A stretch of 64,000 nt of DNA from the NCBI GenBank assembly GCA_045546615.1, contig JAZQDD010000023.1, forward strand, positions 40,296 through 104,295, written 5' to 3'. The notes under the pieces are model-generated. The model saw nothing but the letters and a program-made list of their open reading frames with translations. It ran no database searches and was not told where the DNA came from. Source of the DNA: Eubacteriales bacterium. Lineage in GTDB: Bacteria > Bacillota > Clostridia > Oscillospirales > CAG-272. Below, piece after piece: positions 3,631-35,243 of this stretch. Each line of letters starts with the position of its first letter. The first letter of the stretch is position 1. A program made the translations under genes and the position numbers.

Positions 3631-3981
3631 TTATTTGTTTTTTAATGTAGTAACAGAAGAAACTAACATTCTGCGAAGCTCAACACATCTTCTTTCAAAA
3701 TCGTCAAATTCTGCTTTGGTAATGCTACCTGTTTCACATAAAAGTTCAAGCCAATATTCACTCTCATTACATTCTTTAAGAGCTATTTCAAATTTTGAAA
3801 TGAAATCTTTTGTTTCCTGTGCATATTGAGCTTCGTGGATATTTGCTCCAACAGATGTACCGCAACGCAGAAGTTGATTGACCAAAGCACTTTCAACACC
3901 GTTTTGCTTCATTTTTCGGCAAAGAAAAACTATTCCCTTGGCGAACTCCTTGGATTTTGTTCTTAATACACTATCTGCCAT
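3631..3981 (-). CDS. Four-helix-bundle protein (TIGR02436 / 23S rRNA IVP / bAvd-like), paralog 1
   Basis: QLLRCGTSVGANIHEAQ...DFISKFEIALKECNESEYWL signature; ATG at 3981 with GAGGT RBS. Confidence 0.92.
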   Translation of the reverse strand: MADSVLRTKSKEFAKGIVFLCRKMKQNGVESALVNQLLRCGTSVGANIHEAQYAQETKDFISKFEIALKECNESEYWLELLCETGSITKAEFDDFERRCVELRRMLVSSVTTLKNK

Positions 3982-4006
3982 TCTACTTACCTCTAACTTC
4001 AAACTT

Positions 4007-4104
4007 GGCGAAGCCAATCATAACTTGCCGCAGGCAATCATAACTGATAACTCGTTTCGCAACGGGGGACGAGAAGTTATGAGTTTAGAGTTATGAATTT
4101 GGCT
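4007..4104. repeat. Motif-hairpin inverted array, family 1, copy B, directly upstream of the four-helix-bundle gene
   Basis: Same units as 1246-1344. Ends about 25 nt before the ATG at 3981. Confidence 0.85.
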
Positions 4105-4171
4105 CACACATTCCGCAATATTTTATTTATCGTTTAACGAAAACTTCACGCATGCGGTGCTCATAACTCGG

Positions 4172-4213
4172 AGGGGGTGAGTCAAATGCAAAAATGCATT
4201 TGACTCACCCCCT
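4172..4213. terminator. 19-bp perfect hairpin, likely terminator of the thioester-protein gene
   Basis: AGGGGGTGAGTCAAATGCA-AAAA-TGCATTTGACTCACCCCCT. Confidence 0.6.
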
Positions 4214-4232
4214 TGTCAGCTTTATTAAAAGC

Positions 4233-5069
4233 TTAAGACTGATGGCGTTTTTTTGTACGAACCGCCCACGTTGCGCCGCCAATGCTCAGCAGTAAAAGCG
4301 CAAGTTGGAAACAGGGTTCGAGATCATCGGACGTTTTCGGGGGCATTCCATCGGGGTCAACCGTATCACATTCGATACAAACGCCGCCTTGATATACGTG
4401 TTCTTCGCGATCCTTTTTATCTCCGCACTCGCATTCGTGCCAATGCTCGTTTTCGTCAAACGACCAATCCTTATCGTAATCGTGAACGTGGGAGGGTGTC
4501 TGACCAACGACGATCTTGTAGGCGAAAAAGTACTGCACCTCTGAGTTATCGGGAATCATGACAGTAAAATAAAATGTAATAATATCCCCGTTGTCCAGTT
4601 GTAGCGTGTAACCTTCGTCGGGGATCGCGGGGCCGGTATACGCCTTGACCAAATTTACCAATCTGGATTTCTCACCCGAAACCCACTGCCCATCCGTAAA
4701 ATGCCACACGATAGCCTGAATGGTATTTGTATCCTTGACCTGATATCCGCCGTTGCCGTCGGGTACAAACAGATCCTCAAAGCATTGCGTAAACAACACC
4801 TTCAAGTACTGAGAAATGTCGCTGTTGTCTTTGTTGCTGAGCGCGGCGGACGTGCCGCCGGCGGAAGCGAAAGTATCACCCGAATAAGCGCCATGCAAGA
4901 GGGGGTCCAGGCAGAAACCGTAATAGCCATTCGAAAACTCCACGTTACGATCTCCGGTAGAAAGCGCCGTTTCCTGAGCTGACGTTGCGAATGCGGTAAA
5001 CGTCGCCGCAAGAATAACGGTCAAAATGATTATAAATGATATTAAGTAACTGCGCCTTTTAATGTTCAT
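4233..5069 (-). CDS. Cys-Gln thioester-domain (TED) cell-surface protein with sortase-type anchor
   Basis: Signal peptide; YGFCLD; TQXA-like IQAIVWHFTD; VQYFF; His/Cys-rich linker; PKTSD + TM + basic tail. Confidence 0.75.
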   Translation of the reverse strand: MNIKRRSYLISFIIILTVILAATFTAFATSAQETALSTGDRNVEFSNGYYGFCLDPLLHGAYSGDTFASAGGTSAALSNKDNSDISQYLKVLFTQCFEDLFVPDGNGGYQVKDTNTIQAIVWHFTDGQWVSGEKSRLVNLVKAYTGPAIPDEGYTLQLDNGDIITFYFTVMIPDNSEVQYFFAYKIVVGQTPSHVHDYDKDWSFDENEHWHECECGDKKDREEHVYQGGVCIECDTVDPDGMPPKTSDDLEPCFQLALLLLSIGGATWAVRTKKRHQS

Positions 5070-26660: not shown

Positions 26661-28253
26661 TTATTCCGCCCTGCCGGGAAGCGTTCCCGACGTGCGAAGT
26701 ATGTAGTATTCAAATGCGTCAAGCAAAGCCTGCCAGCTTGCCTGAATAATATCGGTGGATGCGCCCATAGTGCGCCAGAGCCTCTCCCCGTCGCCCGACT
26801 CGACGAAAACGCGGACGATTGATGCCGATGCGGCACTGTCGTTTGAATCTATCCTTGATTTTATGTCGACCATCTTTATTTTGTCGATATAGGGGAAGAA
26901 GCGGCGGAGCGCGGCGTGCGCGGCAATATCAAGCGCGTTTACAGGGCCGTCACCCTCCGCAACGCGAAGCTCCTCTTCACCGTCAACAGCTATCTTTACG
27001 ATAGCGGACCAGTGATTGGGATTGTCCTCGTCAGCCTTTCCGCCAAGCAAGAGCTTGAAATCGCGCAACTCGTACGGCGGCTCTATAATGCCGAGCGTGC
27101 GGCAAATAAGTAAGAGGAGCGATGCCTCCGAATTTTCATATTGATAGCCCTTTTCCTCGGCGGCGCGGATAGCCTCAAGCACTGTGGTGAGACGCGCATC
27201 ATCCTTGTGAACGTCGATTCCAAAGCGGTCAAGTATCTCGGAAACGGCGGCACGCCCCGACAGACCGCTGATAACGAGGTTTCGGCTGTTGCCAACCGCG
27301 TCGGGCGAGATATGCTCAAACGAGCGCGGACGTTTTTTGACCGCATCTATGTGAAGCCCCGCCTTGTGCGTGAAAGCGTGACCGCCAACAAACGGCTCGC
27401 TGTCATCAAAGCCGAGGTTTGCCGTCTGACATATACCACGCGCTACGCCGGAGAGACGTGCCATATTCTCCTCGGGTATGCAATCGTAGCCAAGCTTTAA
27501 TTGCAGTACGGGAAGCACTGTGGAGAGGTTTGCGTTTCCGCAACGCTCACCAATTCCCGAAACCGTGCATTGCGCCTGAAGCGCACCCGCTTTAACGGCG
27601 GCAACGGTGCAGGCATCTGCCATACCGATGTCGTTGTGGCAATGCACACCCACGCGAGCGGCGGGAATTTCTGCAATAACAGCCGACACGACCTCGCTTA
27701 CCGTTTCGGGAAGCATTCCGCCGTTGGTATCACAAAGCGCAAGCGTGTGCGCCCCTGCCTCAAGCGCGGCGCGAAGAACATTCAGCGCATACTCGCTGTC
27801 CTCTGCGTAGCCGTCAAAAAAATGCTCTGCGTCAAATACCACGCGCTTGCCCGCCAAGGTAAGAAACGCTACGGTATCGCGTATCATCGAAAGATTTTCC
27901 TCGGGTGTCGTACCAAGCACCCTTGTGACGTGATAAAGCGAGGATTTGCCAACCACAGCCACCGTGCGATAATCCGACGCGGCAATACGGCAAAGATAGT
28001 CCTCGTCTGCGGCGTGTGAGTCAGCACGGCGCGTGGGGCAAAGCAAGGAAAGCTCCGCACTCCGAAGCTCTACTCGGCTCGGCAACGCCAAAAGCGAATC
28101 GTTACAGCCATGCCCGTAAAATCCCGTTTCAATACATGATATGCCAAGGGTGTCAAGCATGGATATTATCTTTTCCCTCTCGTAGTCGGAAAAGATAACG
28201 CCCGCGCCCTGCGCTCCCTCACGCAAGGTGGAGTCATATATTTCTATTTTCAT
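26661..28253 (-). CDS. cimA: Citramalate synthase
   Basis: DSTLREG, FDAEHFFDG, HCHND, GERCGNANL, HKAGLH, GPVNALD. Confidence 0.85.
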   Translation of the reverse strand: MKIEIYDSTLREGAQGAGVIFSDYEREKIISMLDTLGISCIETGFYGHGCNDSLLALPSRVELRSAELSLLCPTRRADSHAADEDYLCRIAASDYRTVAVVGKSSLYHVTRVLGTTPEENLSMIRDTVAFLTLAGKRVVFDAEHFFDGYAEDSEYALNVLRAALEAGAHTLALCDTNGGMLPETVSEVVSAVIAEIPAARVGVHCHNDIGMADACTVAAVKAGALQAQCTVSGIGERCGNANLSTVLPVLQLKLGYDCIPEENMARLSGVARGICQTANLGFDDSEPFVGGHAFTHKAGLHIDAVKKRPRSFEHISPDAVGNSRNLVISGLSGRAAVSEILDRFGIDVHKDDARLTTVLEAIRAAEEKGYQYENSEASLLLLICRTLGIIEPPYELRDFKLLLGGKADEDNPNHWSAIVKIAVDGEEELRVAEGDGPVNALDIAAHAALRRFFPYIDKIKMVDIKSRIDSNDSAASASIVRVFVESGDGERLWRTMGASTDIIQASWQALLDAFEYYILRTSGTLPGRAE

Positions 28254-28264
28254 AGTCAATTTCC

Positions 28265-29092
28265 TCACTTTTTAAGAAGTACCGCACGTTCTATACCCGA
28301 AAGGTCGGGGAAAATCTCGGCTGTATAACCAAGACCGCGTGAAAAATCGGCAACCGAGTGTGCCATGCCGATTCCGACCTCGTAAAGGATAAAACCACCG
28401 TCATTAAGCAGGGCATCGGCTCGGCGGGTAATCGCGCGATAAAAATCATAGCCGTCCTCACCGCCGTCAAGGGCGCGGCGCGGCTCAAAGGCAAGCTCGG
28501 GCGCAAGTGTGTCGACCTCTGCGGCGGCAATGTATGGGGGATTTGATATGATGGCATCAAAACGCTCGCCCATGAGAAGCTCGGGAGAAAGAGCATCGTC
28601 AACACGCGTGGTAAACCTGTCCGCCACACCGTTGGACTGTGCGTTTGCGGCGGCGGCGGCAAGCGCATGCTCGCTTATATCAACTCCGACGGCGGATACG
28701 TCGGGGCGGCTGTGCAAAACGGATACCGCGATAGCTCCGCTACCCGTGCCGATATCGCAAAACCGCGCACACGGCGGAAGCAGTTTTATTGCTTTCTCAA
28801 CTATCGTCTCCGTGTCGGGGCGAGGGATAAGTGTGTCGGCATTAAGAGAAAAAGGCAAGCCAAAAAACTCCCACTCACCGAGGATGTACTGGATAGGCTC
28901 TCGTGTCTCGCGGCGGCAAAGCGCCGCCTCAAGCTCGGGGGAGGAAAAATCCTTATCCCGAGAAAGCAAAAGGTCAGCAAAGGATATACCGCAAAAACGC
29001 TCAAAGAGCAGACGCACTTCAAATTCTGCATCCTCAATTCCCGCACAGGAAAGACGATAAACAGCATCCCGATAAGTCACAGACGCCTCCAT
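28265..29092 (-). CDS. prmC: Release factor glutamine methyltransferase
   Basis: LIPRPDTE, DIGTGSG, SNPPY. Confidence 0.93.
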   Translation of the reverse strand: MEASVTYRDAVYRLSCAGIEDAEFEVRLLFERFCGISFADLLLSRDKDFSSPELEAALCRRETREPIQYILGEWEFFGLPFSLNADTLIPRPDTETIVEKAIKLLPPCARFCDIGTGSGAIAVSVLHSRPDVSAVGVDISEHALAAAAANAQSNGVADRFTTRVDDALSPELLMGERFDAIISNPPYIAAAEVDTLAPELAFEPRRALDGGEDGYDFYRAITRRADALLNDGGFILYEVGIGMAHSVADFSRGLGYTAEIFPDLSGIERAVLLKK

Positions 29093-29261
29093 AAAAATAA
29101 ATATTCATCATATTTTATCATAAAAAAACCAAAAAATAAATAGTTTTTTATTATAAAATATAGGGAAACAAAAAAATTATTATTTTTTTATAATTTTAAT
29201 GTTGCAAAATGACAAAAATATGGTATACTGTAATTGATAAATAAAAACGGAGGTAACCGCC

Positions 29262-29501
29262 ATGTATGAAAGAAGATCCGAAAAGCCCAGCTATTTTAAG
29301 ATAGTTCTTATCGTAATTGCTGTTGTAGCGGCAATGGCAGCTATCGCAGGCATCATCTGTGCCATTGGCAAGAAGAAGAAGGCAGCCATCTGTGATTGCG
29401 ATTGCGACTGTGAATGCGATTGCGACGAGCTTTTCTTCGATGACGAGGATTTCTGCGACGATGTAGAAGTCGAGATCGAGGACGCTGTTGAGGCTGAATA
29501 A
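29262..29501 (+). CDS. Small membrane-anchored Cys/Asp-rich acidic protein
   Basis: GGAGG RBS, own promoter and terminator; TM helix followed by CDCDCDCECDCDE. Confidence 0.75.
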   Translation: MYERRSEKPSYFKIVLIVIAVVAAMAAIAGIICAIGKKKKAAICDCDCDCECDCDELFFDDEDFCDDVEVEIEDAVEAE

Positions 29502-29507
29502 TTAAGA

Positions 29508-29536
29508 AAAAAGCTGTGCCGTGGCACAGCTTTTTT
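29508..29536 (+). terminator. Intrinsic terminator
   Basis: AGCTGTGCC-GT-GGCACAGCTTTTTT. Confidence 0.8.
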
Positions 29537-29551
29537 ATGTGGACTGCGGAG

Positions 29552-29594
29552 TTTTCCCCACTTTCCACATAGTTTTCCACATTTTTTATCCACA
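29552..29594 (+). promoter_or_regulatory. Cluster of tandem DnaA boxes
   Basis: TTTTCCCCA (29552), CTTTCCACA (29561), TTTTCCACA (29573) and perfect TTATCCACA (29586). Confidence 0.6.
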
Positions 29595-29679
29595 AATTGC
29601 CAAAAATCCGCCTCAAAGCGCACTAAAGAGCCAAAAAATCAGAAAAAAAGAAAAAAAGAAGAAAAAATCAAAAAAACAC

Positions 29680-29708
29680 TTGATTTATCATAATTAATGT
29701 GATATAAT
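29680..29708 (+). promoter_or_regulatory. tRNA-Trp promoter
   Basis: TTGATT-17-TATAAT with TG and an A-rich upstream tract. Confidence 0.65.
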
Positions 29709-29721
29709 ACTCATGTTGTAC

Positions 29722-29797
29722 AGGGGTATAGCTCAGTTGGTAGAGTACTGGTCTCCAAAACCATGGGTCGTGGGTTCGAGTCCTTCTGCCCCTGCCA
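29722..29797 (+). tRNA. tRNA-Trp (CCA)
   Basis: AGGGGTA acceptor stem, D-arm GCTCAGTTGGTAGAGT, anticodon loop CT-CCA-AA, GGTTCGA T-loop, encoded CCA end. Confidence 0.95.
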
Positions 29798-29834
29798 AAA
29801 ATAACGGATAGCCATTCGGCTATCCGTTATTTTT
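29798..29834 (+). terminator. tRNA terminator
   Basis: AAAATAACGGATAGCC-ATTC-GGCTATCCGTTATTTT. Confidence 0.8.
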
Positions 29835-29858
29835 CGTAGTGAGCCAAAAGCGAAAAAC

Positions 29859-29964
29859 CCCTCCAAATTGCTTGCAATTTGGACATAGTTCGCGCTACCG
29901 CTCGTTTTGGCACACCGCCGCATTATGCGCGAACTGCGGGTTCTGAGTCCTTCTGCCCCTGCCA
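29859..29964 (+). repeat. 86-bp structured repeat (copy 1) fused to a duplicated tRNA-Trp 3' end
   Basis: 29859-29944 is identical to 32098-32183. 29938-29964 (GGGTTCTGAGTCCTTCTGCCCCTGCCA) repeats the tRNA 3' end with one substitution. Confidence 0.85.
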
Positions 29965-29966
29965 AG

Positions 29967-30000
29967 AAAAAAGCCATTCGCGTAAGCGGATGGCTTTTTT
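29967..30000 (+). terminator. Terminator immediately before array family 2
   Basis: AAAAAAGCCATTCGC-GTAA-GCGGATGGCTTTTT. Confidence 0.75.
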
Positions 30001-30002
30001 CA

Positions 30003-30257
30003 GTGAAATTCGCCTGCGGCGAGTGAAATACTCCTTCGGAGCGTGAAATATGCTTCGCATGTGAAATGCGCTTCGCGCGTGAGGAGGCGAATTTTATTTC
30101 ACATTGCGACGAAGGAGCAATATTTCACAATTTCCGCCAGGAAATTATTTCACATTTTGCCGTGAGGCAAAATATTTCACTAAAGATCAAAAATTCAGAG
30201 TATCACTTCAAATACGCAAAAAACTATTTCACATTCGGCGCACGCCGAATATTTCAC
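30003..30257. repeat. Motif-hairpin inverted array, family 2 (GTGAAAT x4 / ATTTCAC x6)
   Basis: GTGAAAT at 30003, 30023, 30043, 30061; ATTTCAC at 30096, 30122, 30147, 30174, 30226, 30251. Most spacers are hairpins. Confidence 0.9.
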
Positions 30258-30286
30258 TTGAAAAAATATCGGATTTATGATATAAT
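30258..30286 (+). promoter_or_regulatory. sigmaA promoter abutting the last array unit
   Basis: TTGAAA-17-(TG)TATAAT. Confidence 0.7.
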
Positions 30287-30309
30287 AACGGCGAAAAGGC
30301 GGTGCATAT

Positions 30310-30657
30310 ATGGCAGAATCAAAACTTCGGGAACTATCAACAGACTTTGCTGTTAAGGTAATTAAGCTGTGCGACAATGTAAAAGGTCACTATTCCCTCG
30401 TAAATCAGTTGGAGCGTTCATCTACCTCTATTGGCGCAAACATTCATGAAGCAAATTATGCTCATAGCAAAGCTGACTTTGTTGCCAAATTTCAGATTGC
30501 CCTGAAAGAGTGCTACGAAACGGAATATTGGATCGAAATTGCGCAAAAAGCTAATATCATTTCAGAAGAAATCGCCAAAAGCGTTTTGCACGATTGCGGT
30601 TCTATACGCAGGATGTTAATCGCCTCGATCAACACGGCGAAAGGAGATAAGCAATGA
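30310..30657 (+). CDS. Four-helix-bundle protein (TIGR02436 / bAvd-like), paralog 2
   Basis: QLERSSTSIGANIHEAN...DFVAKFQIALKECYETEYWI. Confidence 0.92.
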   Translation: MAESKLRELSTDFAVKVIKLCDNVKGHYSLVNQLERSSTSIGANIHEANYAHSKADFVAKFQIALKECYETEYWIEIAQKANIISEEIAKSVLHDCGSIRRMLIASINTAKGDKQ

Positions 30658-31034
30658 AACTTCCCAAATATGTAAGAATACAAGGGCGCGAAATCGCGTG
30701 GAAAACAAAAAAGCCCGTGGGAATATTTATTTTGAATTGGCGTAGAATACGTGACAATATTTATAGTTCCGAAGATGTTAAGCTTTATGATGAAACACAT
30801 CAATGGTTTCTTGATAATTTACCGCAACCACCATTTTATGGTGACAACAATGATAATCCACAAGGAGCTATTACATATTTCAAAACCGAAAATTCAGATG
30901 TGATGTTGGAAAAAATACAACCCTTGATAGATTTACTTGATAAATATGATATCCCTTACGATATCGTTTACACGAATTATGTTGGTAAAATTATTTATGA
31001 AGATGATTATCAAGTCGGTGTTATTGATACATAA
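30654..31034 (+). CDS. Hypothetical protein, translationally coupled to the four-helix-bundle gene
   Basis: ATGA overlap and AAGGAG RBS; ends in GKIIYEDDYQV. Confidence 0.75.
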   Translation: MKLPKYVRIQGREIAWKTKKPVGIFILNWRRIRDNIYSSEDVKLYDETHQWFLDNLPQPPFYGDNNDNPQGAITYFKTENSDVMLEKIQPLIDLLDKYDIPYDIVYTNYVGKIIYEDDYQVGVIDT

Positions 31035-31188
31035 GATTCGTTACAAGCATGGCACGAAAGCCCGACAGACCTCGGACAACTTTTTGCTCCCCTCATCGCC
31101 AAGGGATAAGTCTATCCGCTGACCTTGAAACACGGATCGATTTCGAAAAAACTTGCGGTATGGATTGATTTTGAAAGGGTATCACAGC

Positions 31189-31228
31189 AAAAAACGCACT
31201 TTTGTCTACCGACAAAGGTGCGTTTTTT
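31189..31228 (+). terminator. Terminator immediately before array family 3
   Basis: AAAAAACGCACTTTTGTC-TACC-GACAAAGGTGCGTTTTTT. Confidence 0.75.
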
Positions 31229-31229
31229 G

Positions 31230-31383
31230 AATGATGTTTGCCTTCGGCAAATGATGTTGGCTTGCGCCAATGATGACGGCTTCGCCACATTTTGGGGCAA
31301 ACATCGCATCATTGCGAGTGAAACGAGCAACATCATTTTGAGCGAAGCGAAAAACATCATATCGCCGCAAGGCGATGCATCAT
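31230..31383. repeat. Motif-hairpin inverted array, family 3 (ATGATG x3 / CATCAT x4)
   Basis: ATGATG at 31231, 31251, 31270; CATCAT at 31307, 31331, 31355, 31378; hairpin spacers. Confidence 0.85.
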
Positions 31384-31412
31384 TTGACATACAAGCGAAT
31401 TTATGCTATAAT
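31384..31412 (+). promoter_or_regulatory. Consensus sigmaA promoter abutting the last array unit
   Basis: TTGACA-17-(TG)TATAAT. Confidence 0.8.
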
Positions 31413-31436
31413 AAGACAAAGAAAGGCGGTGGAAAA

Positions 31437-31964
31437 ATGAAAACAGAGTCAAAAAACATATTAACGCGAGAAAACTGTAAAGCAGAGCTTAAGCGGTTAT
31501 CCAAATCAAGGCTAATGCAAGATTCGGTTGTGTTGGCAGTATTACTGTTGATATTTGTTCCACTTTTTCTTTTATCGATGTATTTAGCCAAATATATTTT
31601 AATTTTGGGAATTGGTTTTGCTTTGATATGTGCTATTTTCCCTGCTATGTTTGTTTATAGAATTATACGAGATGTGACGTTCTCAAAAATGATCGAGCAA
31701 AATGGCTTTTCAATTGTGAAGGATACTGTTTCTCGCATATCTCTCGATGAAATTCCCAAAAGTTATGCCGAAGGTCGTCGTACAGTGAACGTGATTTATT
31801 TTGCAAAGCACGGAAGATGCGTTGCGCCAAAAGTAAGAACTCCATTTGACTTTTCTGCCCCTGGCGATGAATTTTATCTTGTTGTCCTGCATAAAAAAGA
31901 GGAAATTGTCTTTGCCTATAATTCCACAATGTACAACTGTAACGAATTAGATGTAACCAAATGA
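31437..31964 (+). CDS. Hypothetical membrane protein (two TM helices)
   Basis: ATG at 31437 after AAAGGCGGTG; the longer ORF extension merely reads through the array. Confidence 0.7.
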   Translation: MKTESKNILTRENCKAELKRLSKSRLMQDSVVLAVLLLIFVPLFLLSMYLAKYILILGIGFALICAIFPAMFVYRIIRDVTFSKMIEQNGFSIVKDTVSRISLDEIPKSYAEGRRTVNVIYFAKHGRCVAPKVRTPFDFSAPGDEFYLVVLHKKEEIVFAYNSTMYNCNELDVTK

Positions 31965-32097
31965 ATAATCTTACGGGGCTTCAGACACCTTTTGTTCGTT
32001 TTTACCCTTGTTTAGACACCTTTTATCACGTTTAAAGCAAGAAGAAAAGAAGTCGGTGGCTTCTTTTCTTTTTATCAGCGGATAGTAAAACGAAGAA

Positions 32098-32191
32098 CCC
32101 TCCAAATTGCTTGCAATTTGGACATAGTTCGCGCTACCGCTCGTTTTGGCACACCGCCGCATTATGCGCGAACTGCGGGTTCTTTCTGCCA
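32098..32191 (+). repeat. 86-bp structured repeat (copy 2) with eroded tRNA 3' end
   Basis: Identical to 29859-29944, followed by TTCTGCCA. Confidence 0.85.
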
Positions 32192-32231
32192 AAATCTTAT
32201 ACAAAAGTACGAAATTTGTTTTTTATTTTAC

Positions 32232-32753
32232 TTATTTTTCTAAATCTTCAGGCTCGCCGAAAATATGTTTTTCCACGTATGCCATCATTCTGTTATTCAA
32301 AATAATATAATAAAATGCTAAAACCATGCCCGCGGTTCCCGATATAACTATCATATCAACATCCAAAAACTTCATAGATAAAATCAAGCTCAACCACATA
32401 ACACCGCAAAGAATAAATGTAAAAATATTTTTCCGACACCATCTTTTCTTCCAAAAGTCCTGTTTATCCTTTAACGTAAAAGCGCTTGCCTCCAGAGTTT
32501 CCTTAATGTTTGATTCCGCCATTTTCTTATATTCCGCGGCGTTTAATCTTCTGCCGCTTATAAGCTCGTTTATCGTCAGTCCGTAAATGTCACTAAGCTC
32601 TGATAGCATTTCCACGGGGGGCATATATGTTCCCGTTTCCCATCTTGAAATAGTTTTATTGGACACACCAAGTCTTTCTCCAAGCTCGGCTTGCGTAAGA
32701 CCATGTTCTTTACGAAGCTCCGCAAGAAAGCTTCCCATTTTTACCATATCCAT
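32232..32753 (-). CDS. XRE HTH regulator with C-terminal TM helices
   Basis: LTQAELGERLGVSNKTISRWETG plus two TM segments. Confidence 0.85.
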   Translation of the reverse strand: MDMVKMGSFLAELRKEHGLTQAELGERLGVSNKTISRWETGTYMPPVEMLSELSDIYGLTINELISGRRLNAAEYKKMAESNIKETLEASAFTLKDKQDFWKKRWCRKNIFTFILCGVMWLSLILSMKFLDVDMIVISGTAGMVLAFYYIILNNRMMAYVEKHIFGEPEDLEK

Positions 32754-33044
32754 TGTTTTCCCTCCTTATGATGATCAATACAACGTAATTGTATCACAAA
32801 ATCTTTTATTTGTCTTTACCATAAACAGAGAATTCACATATAAATCTCAAAATCATAAGTTTTTATCAATTTTCTTTTCCCATAGAAAAACAAGGACTGT
32901 TTTTATGGACGCGAAACGGTTGAATTTTCCGATTTTTTGTGATACAATAGTCGAAAGACGCAGGATATCTTAATAATAAATACTGCGAAAAACGTTCACG
33001 CTAAATAATACACATTTCATTTATAACAAAAAAGGAGAATTCCT

Positions 33045-33818
33045 ATGACAAAATTACAAGCACACAGAGGTGTAAGCTCCGACTATCCCGAAAACACGCT
33101 GATAGCCTTTCGCGCGGCGGTGAATGAGGGATACGCCATCATCGAGCTTGACCCCAAATACACCGCGGACGGCGAGTTCGTGATGCTACACGACCATTCC
33201 TTAAAGCGCACAGCAAGAGATAAGAACGGCAACGCGCCCGACGCATTGATACGCGACCTTACCTTGGCGCAGGCAAGAGAGTACGAATACGGCTCGTGGA
33301 TGAACGAGTCCTTCCGCGGCGAGACAATACCTACGCTGTCAGACGTGTTGGACTTTTCAGAGAAAAATCCCGCCGTTCCGCTGAAATTTGATAACGTTTG
33401 GACTACGTTCCCCGAGGAGCTTCGCGCGACATTTCTTGGGAAAATAGCGGAGCGAGGCGAACGCGTAAGCGTAGGTCTTACCTGCGGCACGCTTGAGTCA
33501 CTAAAGCAAGCCGCCGCCCTTCCCCGCGCCGCGCTCCACTACGACGGCGGTGATCTTAGCGAGGACACGCTGAACGCTGTATCGCGTATTGCCGAGGGGC
33601 ATGAGCTTATTATCTGGATCTGCCACGACAACCCGCGAACCTCTTGGTTCAAAGGCGAAAAAGCCACTCCGGAGCTTTGCGACAGAGTGCGCAAATATGC
33701 GAAGATCGGAATTTGGCTTATCAACAAGCCCGACGAGCTTGATGAAGCTATACGCGTGCTTCGGGCAGATTATGTCGAAACCAACGGCTGGATCAAGCCC
33801 TGCCAGATCAAGGGCTGA
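33045..33818 (+). CDS. Glycerophosphodiester phosphodiesterase family protein
   Basis: AHRG, PENTLIAF, IELD, HD, IPTL. Confidence 0.85.
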   Translation: MTKLQAHRGVSSDYPENTLIAFRAAVNEGYAIIELDPKYTADGEFVMLHDHSLKRTARDKNGNAPDALIRDLTLAQAREYEYGSWMNESFRGETIPTLSDVLDFSEKNPAVPLKFDNVWTTFPEELRATFLGKIAERGERVSVGLTCGTLESLKQAAALPRAALHYDGGDLSEDTLNAVSRIAEGHELIIWICHDNPRTSWFKGEKATPELCDRVRKYAKIGIWLINKPDELDEAIRVLRADYVETNGWIKPCQIKG

Positions 33819-33947
33819 CCTTTGATCTGGCATTGATTTATAGCTAAAAAGCACCTCGGGTAGTTTATCCTGCAACACACATTGAAAAGAGGCTACCCGT
33901 CTCCCGTCTCAACAAATTCTAAAATCCCAAAGTTAATGAGAGAGCAA

Positions 33948-34337
33948 ATGAAAAAGAAATTATATTATGCAATGCCCTTTATAGCAGTTCCCGCATTGAT
34001 GCTGCTATGTGAGCTGTTTGATACTTTGGGGCTGATTCAAATGTCGCCCTACATAATAGCAGTATGCTTACTGCTCGTGTCTGCCGCTTTCGGCTTTTTT
34101 TCCTCATCAGAGAATGTTTTTGATTATGTGATGACGGTTATCATGCCATTATCCATGTTTTGCTTTATGTTCATTATAGGATTTTTAAGCAAAAGCGATA
34201 TGGAAACTCGTTTTCACCTATATAAAGCCGTAGATGCGTCCTTTCAACCCTTTACTTTGTTGTTGTGTCTTTCTATGGCGATCGTTACCCTGCTGACCTC
34301 GCTTAAACGCTTTAGAAACCTCAAAAAACGCATCTAA
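33948..34337 (+). CDS. Hypothetical membrane protein
   Basis: Four hydrophobic segments. Confidence 0.65.
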   Translation: MKKKLYYAMPFIAVPALMLLCELFDTLGLIQMSPYIIAVCLLLVSAAFGFFSSSENVFDYVMTVIMPLSMFCFMFIIGFLSKSDMETRFHLYKAVDASFQPFTLLLCLSMAIVTLLTSLKRFRNLKKRI

Positions 34338-34350
34338 ACCGATAAATATA

Positions 34351-34379
34351 AAAACCCCGACATCCGCTGTCGGGGTTTT
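34351..34379. terminator. Bidirectional terminator
   Basis: AAAACCCCGACA-TCCGC-TGTCGGGGTTTT. Confidence 0.8.
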
Positions 34380-34408
34380 ATAATGCTTATGAGAGATGCA
34401 AAAAGCAT

Positions 34409-34867
34409 TCACGCTCCGAGGTACTCAAGCACCTCGGTGGGGTTCGTGTCGGGTTTTACCTTCGGCATTACCACCTCGACAATGCCGTTTTCGTCAATCA
34501 CAAAGGTCGTGCGCACTACGCCCATGCTGACCTTGCCGCACATCTTCTTTTCCTGCCATACGCCGTACGCCTCGATAGCGGAAAGCTCGGGGTCGGAAAG
34601 AAGCACGAAAGGAAGCTCGTACTTTGCGGCAAATTTTGCGTGCGAGGCAACGCTGTCGCGGCTGATGCCGATAACAACGGCATTCACCGTGCGAAAGCCC
34701 TCATACGCCGCCGCAAAGGCACACGCCTGACGGGTACAGCCGGGAGTATTATCCTTTGGATAAAAGTAAAGCACTACCTTCTTACCGCGAAAATCAGACA
34801 GCGACACCTCATTTCCATCCTTGTCAAGCAGGGTGAAATCGGGTGCTTTTTCTCCGATGCCTATCAT
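34409..34867 (-). CDS. bcp: Thioredoxin-dependent thiol peroxidase (BCP)
   Basis: YFYPKDNTPGCTRQAC. Confidence 0.92.
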   Translation of the reverse strand: MIGIGEKAPDFTLLDKDGNEVSLSDFRGKKVVLYFYPKDNTPGCTRQACAFAAAYEGFRTVNAVVIGISRDSVASHAKFAAKYELPFVLLSDPELSAIEAYGVWQEKKMCGKVSMGVVRTTFVIDENGIVEVVMPKVKPDTNPTEVLEYLGA

Positions 34868-34868
34868 T

Positions 34869-35243
34869 TTACGCTTTCCAAAGGCTGTGGAGGTTGCAGT
34901 ATGCGTAAACTGCCTCAACCTCGTCGCCATCGCAAACCGAGAAGCAAACAACAGGCTTTTCGCCGGGTGCAAGGGGCTTTCTCTGGTTGCCGTACTTGGT
35001 CTGCAACGATACCCACTCGATATAATGCTCCTCTGTCATGGGATGCTCTACCGCACCAACGGTAACGATTACCTTGTTGCCCTCTACCTTGTATACGGGA
35101 ACGTGCTTTTCAACCGACGCGTCGGTAGTGCCGGGGATGATCTCCTTCATTTTCTGACCGCAGCACATCATGGGGACACCCTTGTCCTTTACCATTGCTA
35201 CGATATTTCCGCAATGCTCACATCTTAAAAATCTCTGTTCCAT
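34869..35243 (-). CDS. dfx: Desulfoferrodoxin (superoxide reductase)
   Basis: CEHCGN..CCG, EKHVP, HPM..EHYI, CNLH. Confidence 0.93.
   Translation of the reverse strand: MEQRFLRCEHCGNIVAMVKDKGVPMMCCGQKMKEIIPGTTDASVEKHVPVYKVEGNKVIVTVGAVEHPMTEEHYIEWVSLQTKYGNQRKPLAPGEKPVVCFSVCDGDEVEAVYAYCNLHSLWKA

Follow-up and report, generated by a model that had tools for sequence, protein, structure and literature searches.

Two small gene cassettes stand in tandem behind a tRNA-Trp gene of a Eubacteriales bacterium (Clostridia, Oscillospirales, CAG-272), each opening with a transcription terminator, an array of short hairpins and a promoter. They lie within the window analyzed here, a 64,000-nt stretch of contig JAZQDD010000023.1 (positions 40,296 to 104,295, forward strand) of assembly GCA_045546615.1. 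The genome, hereafter G000, is assembled into 66 contigs totalling 1.84 Mb, with a completeness of 94.9% and a GC content of 48%; the cassette region has a GC of 0.41-0.43 vs ~0.50 around it. An initial annotation had described one layout for both cassettes, and every element was found again at its place, to the nucleotide.

Anatomy of the tRNA-Trp cassette stack

The anchor of the stack is the tRNA-Trp gene itself (CCA anticodon; 29722..29797; ARAGORN, and Rfam tRNA at 59.6 bits), which has its own promoter at 29680-29708 by promoter pattern; all features are on the + strand unless stated. Directly 3' of it lies T0, a terminator hairpin (29798..29836) formed by an inverted repeat with 22-nt arms that are 91% complementary, followed by the 91-nt repeat module R1 (29854..29944), which is 98% identical to a direct repeat at 32093-32183. 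Next to R1 is t' (29945..29966), a 22-nt duplicate of the tRNA-Trp 3' end (GAGTCC...CTGCCA) with 93% identity to 29778-29804. This duplicate restores the junction at which "...CCA" is followed by a terminator, and the relative G013, described below, is arranged alike.

Head 1 begins with the terminator hairpin T1 (29966..30001), which has a T run and 16-nt arms that are 94% complementary. Array 1 follows: its left half (30001..30072) has four GTGAAAT linkers from 30003 onward with private mini-hairpins, and its right half (30091..30257, - strand) has six ATTTCAC linkers as read on the + strand, the last of which ends at 30257 and touches the -35 box of the promoter-like sequence P1, TTGAAA-17-TGaTATAAT (30258..30286; 11/12 matches, TG present). 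The head ends on the right with an extended Shine-Dalgarno (SD) sequence, AAAGGCGGTG (30295..30304), that is a direct repeat. Behind it come an Avd-like four-helix-bundle gene (30310..30657, ATG at 30310), identified by PF05635, TIGR02436 and PDB 2rld matches, and ORF2 (30654..31034), an entry of the open reading frame (ORF) list that is translationally coupled through ATGA, encodes a 126-aa cargo protein and has an orthologue in G013. Profile scans found no Pfam or NCBIfam family for ORF2. Cassette 1 closes with X (31035..31186), a conserved end-of-cassette module that has 22 distinct copies in relatives.

Head 2 repeats this order with T2 (31188..31229), a 19-pair terminator with the conserved apex TTTGTCTACCGACAAA, and array 2 (31230..31383, no strand assigned), in which three ATGATG and four CATCAT linkers alternate with private mini-hairpins up to 31383. 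The promoter-like P2, TTGACA-17-TGcTATAAT (31384..31412; 12/12 matches, TG present), follows at once, and the second AAAGGCGGTG (31422..31431) is the right end of the head. The cargo gene (31437..31964, ATG at 31437) is a single-copy ORF in the genome and encodes a 175-aa protein with hydrophobic segments, for which we found no Pfam family and only a sub-threshold NCBIfam match. It is followed by the module Y (31965..32092), with two AGACACCTTTT direct repeats and then a terminator-like hairpin at 32042-32070 (called on the - strand), and by R2 (32093..32183), the second R copy and a direct repeat, which closes the stack and in G013 stands directly after X and T0'.

Gut-1-type arrays as part of an expression head

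Weinberg et al. 2010 (PMC2864571) present the Gut-1 motif (RF01706) as a likely non-coding RNA known from human-gut data only and without an assigned function. The whole RF01706 model is matched by the left half of array 1 at 68.9 bits (E 7e-13; gathering score 50), and the right half, on the opposite strand, reaches 49.5 bits (30091-30182; E 6e-8 in Rfam), just under that score, with a further 17.9 bits at 30221-30279. Array 2 matches weakly, at 25.2 bits and under the gathering score, and is therefore a Gut-1 variant, not a member by that test. Across G000 there are 55 Gut-1 matches at E <= 1, 20 of them above the cut-off. A scan for a linker word plus a hairpin pattern found 69 half-arrays, vs 2 in the reversed genome sequence that served as control.

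The linker word is uniform within one array and differs among arrays, the words being GTGAAAT, GTGAAG(T/C), (A/G)TGATAT, ATGATG(T), ATGAAAT and ATGAAGC, with the consensus RTGAWRT. The initial annotation had called the two array motifs unrelated; both fit this consensus and one architecture, and array 2 is therefore a word-variant of the Gut-1 design. In all word types observed, left and right linkers are complementary (GTGAAAT/ATTTCAC, ATGAAAT/ATTTCAT, GTGAAGT/ACTTCAC, ATGATG/CATCAT, GTGATAT/ATATCAC and ATGATAT/ATATCAT). The hairpins are private to each unit, and compensatory changes preserve their pairing: for 4/4 predicted pairs, cases with both sides changed occur among 24 genomic array copies. 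A consensus fold of 24 arrays recovered one hairpin only, because the MAFFT alignment on which it was computed is not structure-aware. Single-strand folding gives z = -7.3 for array 1 and -4.65 for array 2, with 0/200 shuffles as good.

Inverted doublets, defined as a word present at least three times and then its reverse complement at least three times, number 13 in G000 vs 0, 0 and 0 in three shuffled genomes; shuffling was used since inverted doublets survive reversal, which makes the reversed genome unsuitable as a control. A terminator-like hairpin adjoins 12/13 of the doublets (judged by eye on the flanks), and a consensus-like promoter directly follows 8/13 (seven by pattern, one by eye). 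The earlier proposal that each array sits between a terminator and a -35 box holds to this extent for the doublets and fails for many single half-arrays. The terminator belongs to the element, because T2 and its apex recur at other loci. T2 is found 100% identical in contig C51 of G000 and 97.6% identical directly after tRNA-Met in C31, and the apex TTTGTCTACCGACAAA is common to several other terminators on differing stems. In C51 the T2-array-2 unit, with an array copy 92% identical, precedes another promoter and gene, and an 80% identical copy of array 2 lies at C23:130403, before a four-helix-bundle gene.

The same head is found beyond G000. Comparison of the cassette-1 protein with species-representative genomes yielded 80 related loci, with proteins 70-86% identical, in metagenome-assembled genomes (MAGs) labelled Eubacteriales, Clostridia, Oscillospiraceae, Acutalibacteraceae etc., mainly from ruminant guts. 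A convergent linker pair lies upstream in 76/80 of them, and three of the other four have <=153 nt of upstream sequence. Among the 77 loci with >=200 nt upstream, 51 have the -35 hexamer within 1 nt of the last-linker end (a -35-like hexamer at -1, 0 or +1, a spacer of 16-18 nt and a -10 box); the AAAGGCGGTG word is present in 22/80. In the 76 loci the majority left/right linker letters are G-c (36 loci), A-t (37), G-t (3) or A-c (0). The switch between G/c and A/t corresponds to only 2-3 changes on the four-helix-bundle gene tree, which indicates concerted change and co-inheritance rather than many independent events.

The initial annotation had suggested that the array acts as DNA and not as a transcript, which its Watson-Crick stems and strand symmetry favor but do not establish. 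Among 1476 stem pairs in 257 distinct hairpins, 1454 are Watson-Crick, 2 G·T, 8 A·C and 12 other. RNA helices tolerate G·U, and stems this strict therefore favor folded DNA over RNA. The loops of the two halves are reverse-complementary (TTC, TGC and TTT vs GAA, GCA and AAA), and GCGAAGC, the complement of the common GCTTCGC hairpin, is an unusually stable DNA mini-hairpin. Array 1 shares with the published Gut-1 the GUGAAAU linkers and three hairpins of its left half and an origin in gut-associated Clostridia. Compared with Gut-1 as given in RF01706 and in its description (PMC2864571), the arrays here differ in that they form halves of inverted doublets between a terminator and a promoter, show nearly no G·U pairs, use at least six linker words in 69 half-arrays and are tied to four-helix-bundle genes and tRNA flanks.

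If the arrays instead acted as RNA, they would be 3'-UTR or 5'-UTR (untranslated region) elements or small RNAs, with linker words that are bound by protein or protect the transcript. The compensatory changes that preserve the hairpins fit such a role, as do sense-strand loops of the UUCG/UNCG kind, which are also good RNA loops, and the many single half-arrays that begin, in the sense direction, ~20 nt downstream of a stop codon. Among 54 arrays outside crude ORFs, 31 have their upstream neighbor on the same strand, 16 on the opposite strand and 7 at a contig end, and 31 vs 16 would suit a 3'-UTR role; these genome-wide counts rest on crude ORFs, inside which 15/69 arrays lie. Array pieces also occur in RNA-library contigs, weak evidence given possible DNA carry-over and the nature of the data, assembled Logan contigs from which strand, ends and RNA level are not readable. 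Both Rfam and Weinberg et al. 2010 (PMC2864571) consider Gut-1 likely to be an RNA. Against these points stand the position of the cassette arrays between terminator and promoter, with a right half that is antisense to everything nearby, the mirror symmetry of the halves down to their loops, the 2 G·T vs 8 A·C pairs, and the 16/47 arrays that point away from a gene start instead of following a gene. On balance, we regard an RNA function as improbable and retain folded DNA as the favored form.

Another alternative makes the arrays selfish or structural repeats of the kind known as repetitive extragenic palindromes (REPs), bacterial interspersed mosaic elements (BIMEs), REP doublets forming hairpins (REPINs) or miniature inverted-repeat transposable elements (MITEs), with the cassette layout arising from spacer duplication and recombination and without a specific tie to the four-helix-bundle gene. 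As with REPs, BIMEs and REPINs, the arrays are multi-copy, modular, fast-evolving extragenic palindromes at gene ends: the 69 half-arrays are dispersed, even between the housekeeping genes def and fmt, the inverted doublets look like REPINs, unit number differs between copies, and the G013 array is unalignable next to a gene that is 87% identical. In contrast to those repeats, however, the linker is conserved and the palindromes are private, words are homogeneous within an array and complementary between halves, and arrays of 4-5 units are joined to a promoter and to genes of one particular family. The tight positioning of terminator, -35 box and four-helix-bundle gene in 51/77 loci and the co-occurrence over 151 genomes described below also speak against this alternative, as does the lack of any REP-associated tyrosine transposase (RAYT) in the 95%-complete genome; with 0 matches to the Y1 domain (PF01797), mobilization by a RAYT/IS200-type transposase was discarded. 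We consider the repeat explanation unlikely.

The four-helix-bundle gene and its exchangeable partners

The cassette-1 protein matches Pfam PF05635 (E 3e-26, 92.1 bits vs a cut-off of 33.8) and NCBIfam TIGR02436 (E 1.8e-29, 102.1 bits vs a cut-off of 24), and its closest solved relative is PDB 2rld (E 6e-21), an entry that holds five chains. It thus falls in the same protein family (PF05635/cd16375) as the Avd proteins of diversity-generating retroelements (DGRs) and the 23S rRNA intervening-sequence (IVS) proteins. IVS proteins are located inside stable-RNA operons. The resemblance of the PF05635 family to DGR Avd is noted in a published account (PMC10053308). Unlike DGR Avd, the gene described here is a translationally coupled leader of exchangeable cargo behind tRNA genes. 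There are 0 reverse transcriptase (PF00078) matches in G000, and its four-helix-bundle genes are therefore not DGR Avd genes. A DGR context for the locus was discarded on the same ground; no pair resembling template and variable repeats is present among the repeat families shown for 29500-32400.

G000 contains eight PF05635 genes. Seven are assessable, of which six have a terminator plus doublet upstream and five of these six a promoter as well; a tRNA gene lies directly ahead of 5/7. Each precedes a different second gene, often with ATGA overlap, and the second genes, labelled by reading their sequences only, include cytidine-deaminase-like, DUF218-like and membrane proteins. The 3' end of the four-helix-bundle gene forms a built-in ribosome-binding site, ...GCAAAGGAGAA-N6-aaATGA, and identity between loci stops at ATGA; the cargo junctions lie at ATGA, after a conserved AAAGGAGAA. 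The stretch 3661-4300 of the window (- strand) holds another member of the family (C23:43956-44255), and the array upstream of it uses another word, TCATAACT followed by AGTTATGA. The paralogue at C31:1994-2287 is truncated by an in-frame TGA relative to its closest paralogue and is probably a decaying copy. A one-gene cassette behind tRNA-Gln (C46:32644-33640) consists of terminator, doublet, promoter, membrane-protein gene, Y and terminator, with 14 nt of the tRNA-Gln 3' end, copied in inverted orientation, as its closing element.

The tie to tRNA genes extends to the related loci. A co-directional tRNA gene lies <=700 nt upstream in 60 of the 80 and is absent from 10, the remaining 10 being too short to tell; a tRNA gene thus precedes 60/70 informative loci, and 12 kinds are represented, tRNA-Trp 17 times. 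The tree of the four-helix-bundle genes implies 36 changes of tRNA kind, vs a mean of 40 and a minimum of 35 with shuffled labels, which indicates that closely related heads stand behind different tRNA genes. The cargo is almost always different: 62 second-gene proteins fall into 51 clusters, and only 19/61 have a Pfam match at E <= 1e-4. These matches comprise GNAT (three), WapI-like (three), methyltransferases (four), NUDIX, an SASA esterase, a metallo-beta-lactamase fold, a metallophosphoesterase, AAA_18, ASCH, a DMP19-like protein and two DUFs.

Array and gene also keep company at the level of genomes. In a survey of 151 sampled genomes of the order (Gut-1 threshold E <= 1e-6), Gut-1 occurs in 61 and PF05635 in 71; 53 genomes have both, 8 have Gut-1 without PF05635, 18 have PF05635 without Gut-1, and 72 have neither of the two. 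We treat this co-occurrence as descriptive only, because the genomes are related and the Gut-1 model sees one word. At the finer scale, array and gene keep a fixed adjacency, the word type goes with the protein clade, and about five linkers per half-array stand alongside a homologue crystallized with five chains. A precedent for DNA hairpins comes from DGR targets, which require a DNA hairpin with free stem sequence (PMC3240598). From these four observations (fixed adjacency, clade-matched words, five linkers with five chains and the DGR hairpin), the four-helix-bundle protein is the natural candidate for the partner of the array.

Gain, loss and stacking of cassettes

To establish how the stack varies, the tRNA-Trp locus was compared across relatives, a check that the initial annotation had proposed. 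The two nearest relatives by PrmC (78-79% identity) have tRNA-Trp at the same place. The G013 locus runs from tRNA-Trp through T0, R, t', terminator, array, promoter, four-helix-bundle gene and ORF2 to X, with a second T0-R copy directly after X and then a helix-turn-helix (HTH) gene. The orthologous four-helix-bundle gene and ORF2 have 86.6% nucleotide identity, the array has ATGAAAT/ATTTCAT linkers and wholly different hairpins, and cassette 2 is missing, 904 nt (31183-32086) being absent. In G022, the contig that shares the downstream flank, with its GDPD and Bcp genes, has at least four different units, between which lie X modules and arrays built on other words; their genes are ORFs of 186, 197 and 284 aa and a four-helix-bundle gene that has an HTH gene as its partner. 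In the L066 MAG, the sequence from the tRNA to 31431 is 100% identical except for two divergent patches, one being the 3' portion of the four-helix-bundle gene and the other the left half of array 2, in which unit number differs; identity ends right after the AAAGGCGGTG of cassette 2, and different cargo and chromosomal flanks follow. The locus thus holds one cassette in G013, two in the window and at least four others in G022. The view of these units as portable expression cassettes that stack behind a tRNA is supported by this variation, by the cargo swap in L066 and by the 12 tRNA kinds among the 60/70 loci.

The sole mapped insertion, that of cassette 2 relative to G013, runs from the first base of T2 to after Y and its terminator, which places the joints outside the array. 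An insertion that splits a terminator hairpin was considered and rejected, as cassette 2 is bounded by the end of X on one side and by the resident terminator on the other. At the end of every unit stands a module resembling a tRNA-gene end plus terminator. In its 22 distinct copies X ends in GCCA (12), CACA (7), ACCA (1) or other (2), and a terminator follows, often with an array. Module X is ~100 nt long, highly conserved in sequence, contains two GGATCGATTT direct repeats and marks cassette ends in several genomes. A structured RNA was rejected for X, since its sequence is conserved with almost no covariation, and a protein-binding or recombination site is more likely.

Module R always stands behind a tRNA terminator and is followed by a local tRNA 3'-end copy with an extra T in the T-loop (GGTTCTGARTCC). 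Copies of it occur after tRNA-Trp, tRNA-Ser and tRNA-Pro, and 4-5 tandem units of terminator, R and tRNA end lie after tRNA-Ala; within G000, R copies are at C12:12-100, C18:6362-6450 and C22:12260-12950. It could be a small tRNA-targeting element or the remnant of an attachment site. Y has six copies in the genome, at cassette ends, with AGACACCTTTT repeats ~32 nt apart; one, at C16:3766-3827 on a short contig, lies ~220 nt from a tyrosine-recombinase gene (C16:4048-4707). No Rfam family matches R, X or Y at E <= 1. A low-identity RNA-library contig that joins R to the region after R2 is the only hint of a cassette-free variant, and the depth of public runs over the modules mostly reflects other organisms' copies.

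The initial annotation had likened the stack to an integron while noting the absence of an integrase. The second point stands: the ORF list holds no integrase or recombinase-like ORF in 27000-35000 of the window, and no recombinase is among the ORFs listed in the G022 stack. The likeness is an analogy only, since attC-type core sites are also missing from the locus and every cassette carries a promoter of its own. It lies in the stacking of small cassettes with diverse, mostly unknown cargo whose content varies between relatives, and in palindromic punctuation sites that are conserved more in structure than in sequence. Unlike integrons with IntI, attI, attC and Pc, terminator, promoter and SD come with every cassette, a tRNA gene takes the place of attI as the anchor, and the mapped junctions lie outside the array. 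Whereas attC has RYYYAAC/GTTRRRY and lies 3' of promoterless cassettes, the arrays have GTGAAAT/ATTTCAC or ATGATG/CATCAT linkers and lie 5' of genes.

A truly integron-like, site-specific system, in which arrays would be folded analogues of attC and a recombinase encoded elsewhere would insert circles behind tRNA genes, is in our judgment quite improbable. It would account for the variation in cassette number and cargo at the orthologous locus, for imperfect palindromes with conserved structure and 7-nt boxes that are complementary left to right as in attC, for the copies of tRNA 3' ends between units, and for a cargo that recalls chromosomal integrons (GNAT, immunity-like and methyltransferase proteins with many unknowns, a Pfam match being found in 19/61); the nine tyrosine-recombinase (PF00589) genes of G000, all on other contigs, also speak for it. 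It is difficult to reconcile with the lack of a recombinase at the window's locus and among the ORFs listed in the G022 stack, with linkers that do not match the attC cores, with a promoter in every cassette and with an insertion that runs from terminator to after Y and not within the array. Cargo joints after the SD or at the ATGA overlap, and a terminator-plus-array unit common to loci at which both flanks differ, argue against it as well.

The cassettes also resemble tRNA-gene genomic islands and mobile insertion cassettes (MICs), in that accessory genes collect at the 3' ends of tRNA genes and duplicates of these ends separate the units. Unlike these, the units measure only 0.9-1.3 kb, have a fixed expression head, and lack both an integrase or transposase and the terminal inverted repeats of a known insertion sequence. 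A phage or plasmid vehicle was discarded, as 29967-31190 has no blastn match in phage or plasmid collections. Two predicted viral contigs from IMG/VR, L146 and L147, carry an array-four-helix-bundle head within ~4 kb of a contig end, in L146 behind two tRNA-Ser genes and in L147 with two tandem array doublets and no tRNA in the stretch fetched. Because these heads are at contig ends, they may be host flanks of prophages.

Upstream of the stack, between a small Cys-rich ORF and the tRNA-Trp promoter, lies a cluster of DnaA-box-like sequences (29556-29600; TTATCCACA and two TTTTCCACA-like words) that is kept in G013 and G022. There is no GC-skew switch, and the cluster is therefore probably not oriC. 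The small ORF (29262-29501) has a hydrophobic N-terminus and an CDCDCDCECDCDE tail, and it resembles the FeoB-associated Cys-rich membrane protein family only weakly, with a score under the threshold.

A cassette family of gut and rumen Clostridia

Cassettes of one anatomy form a multi-copy family that is linked to tRNA and four-helix-bundle genes, gains and loses members and swaps cargo at SD joints. We hold with moderate confidence that the two units in the window are neighbors in a widespread, recombining family of tRNA-flank accessory-gene cassettes, with the head, the stacking, the folded-DNA array and the protein platform as its parts. Its hosts would be uncultured gut and rumen Clostridia, represented by Oscillospirales-type MAGs. 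The head combines an intrinsic terminator, an inverted Gut-1-type doublet, a near-consensus sigma-70-type promoter and an extended SD; in the doublet, a 7-nt linker word alternates with perfectly paired private mini-hairpins, ~4 per half, the right half mirroring the left. Such a head would block incoming transcription and then restart it, so that cargo could be expressed independently of context. In its canonical form, as in cassette 1, it would drive an Avd-like gene whose 3' end supplies the SD and ATGA for an exchangeable second gene, and cassette 2 is a head fused directly to its cargo. Units may stack because each ends in a module (t', X or R) that re-creates the junction between "...CCA" and a terminator. 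Exchange would be driven by recombination anchored in the conserved tRNA, head and four-helix-bundle gene, without an integron-type integrase, and cargo would be joined at ribosome-binding-site microhomology. The array would work as folded DNA, probably as a platform to which the cognate four-helix-bundle protein binds, and this protein may also insulate or regulate the promoter next to it.

Beside the points already given for an RNA role, several observations weigh against this interpretation. Cassette 2 and the C51 copy are heads without a four-helix-bundle gene, and 8/61 Gut-1-positive genomes lack PF05635, including one with 23 arrays that is 75% complete and another that is 96% complete. 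Co-inheritance alone can explain the link between linker word and four-helix-bundle gene, and the independent-contrast test of left and right linkers, with only 2-3 independent pairs, is underpowered. Only one insertion boundary has been mapped.

A bolder form of the same idea, which we judge rather unlikely, is that the cassettes belong to a previously undescribed, integrase-free capture-and-expression system, in which a probably pentameric Avd-like protein reads word-coded, extruded DNA mini-hairpins and controls or insulates the promoter. There would then be ~5 copies of a 7-nt word per half and at least six orthogonal word/protein pairs in a 1.8-Mb genome, and heads behind tRNA genes would gain new cargo through ribosome-binding-site microhomology. 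A published description of these cassettes was not found in the literature searched, which left most subscription journals outside its coverage.

Gut-1 has been an orphan motif since 2010, and to our knowledge most PF05635 proteins outside DGRs have no known role. The present findings place Gut-1 arrays and PF05635 genes in one module that heads small exchangeable cassettes behind tRNA genes and is widespread in an order of gut and rumen Clostridia. This yields a testable protein-array pair, points to a way in which genes may move among uncultured gut bacteria, and offers a compact natural part made of terminator, insulator, promoter and ribosome-binding site, in several apparently orthogonal versions. 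Were the cassettes indeed a capture-and-expression system, this would be the first function for the Gut-1 motif and for non-DGR PF05635 proteins.

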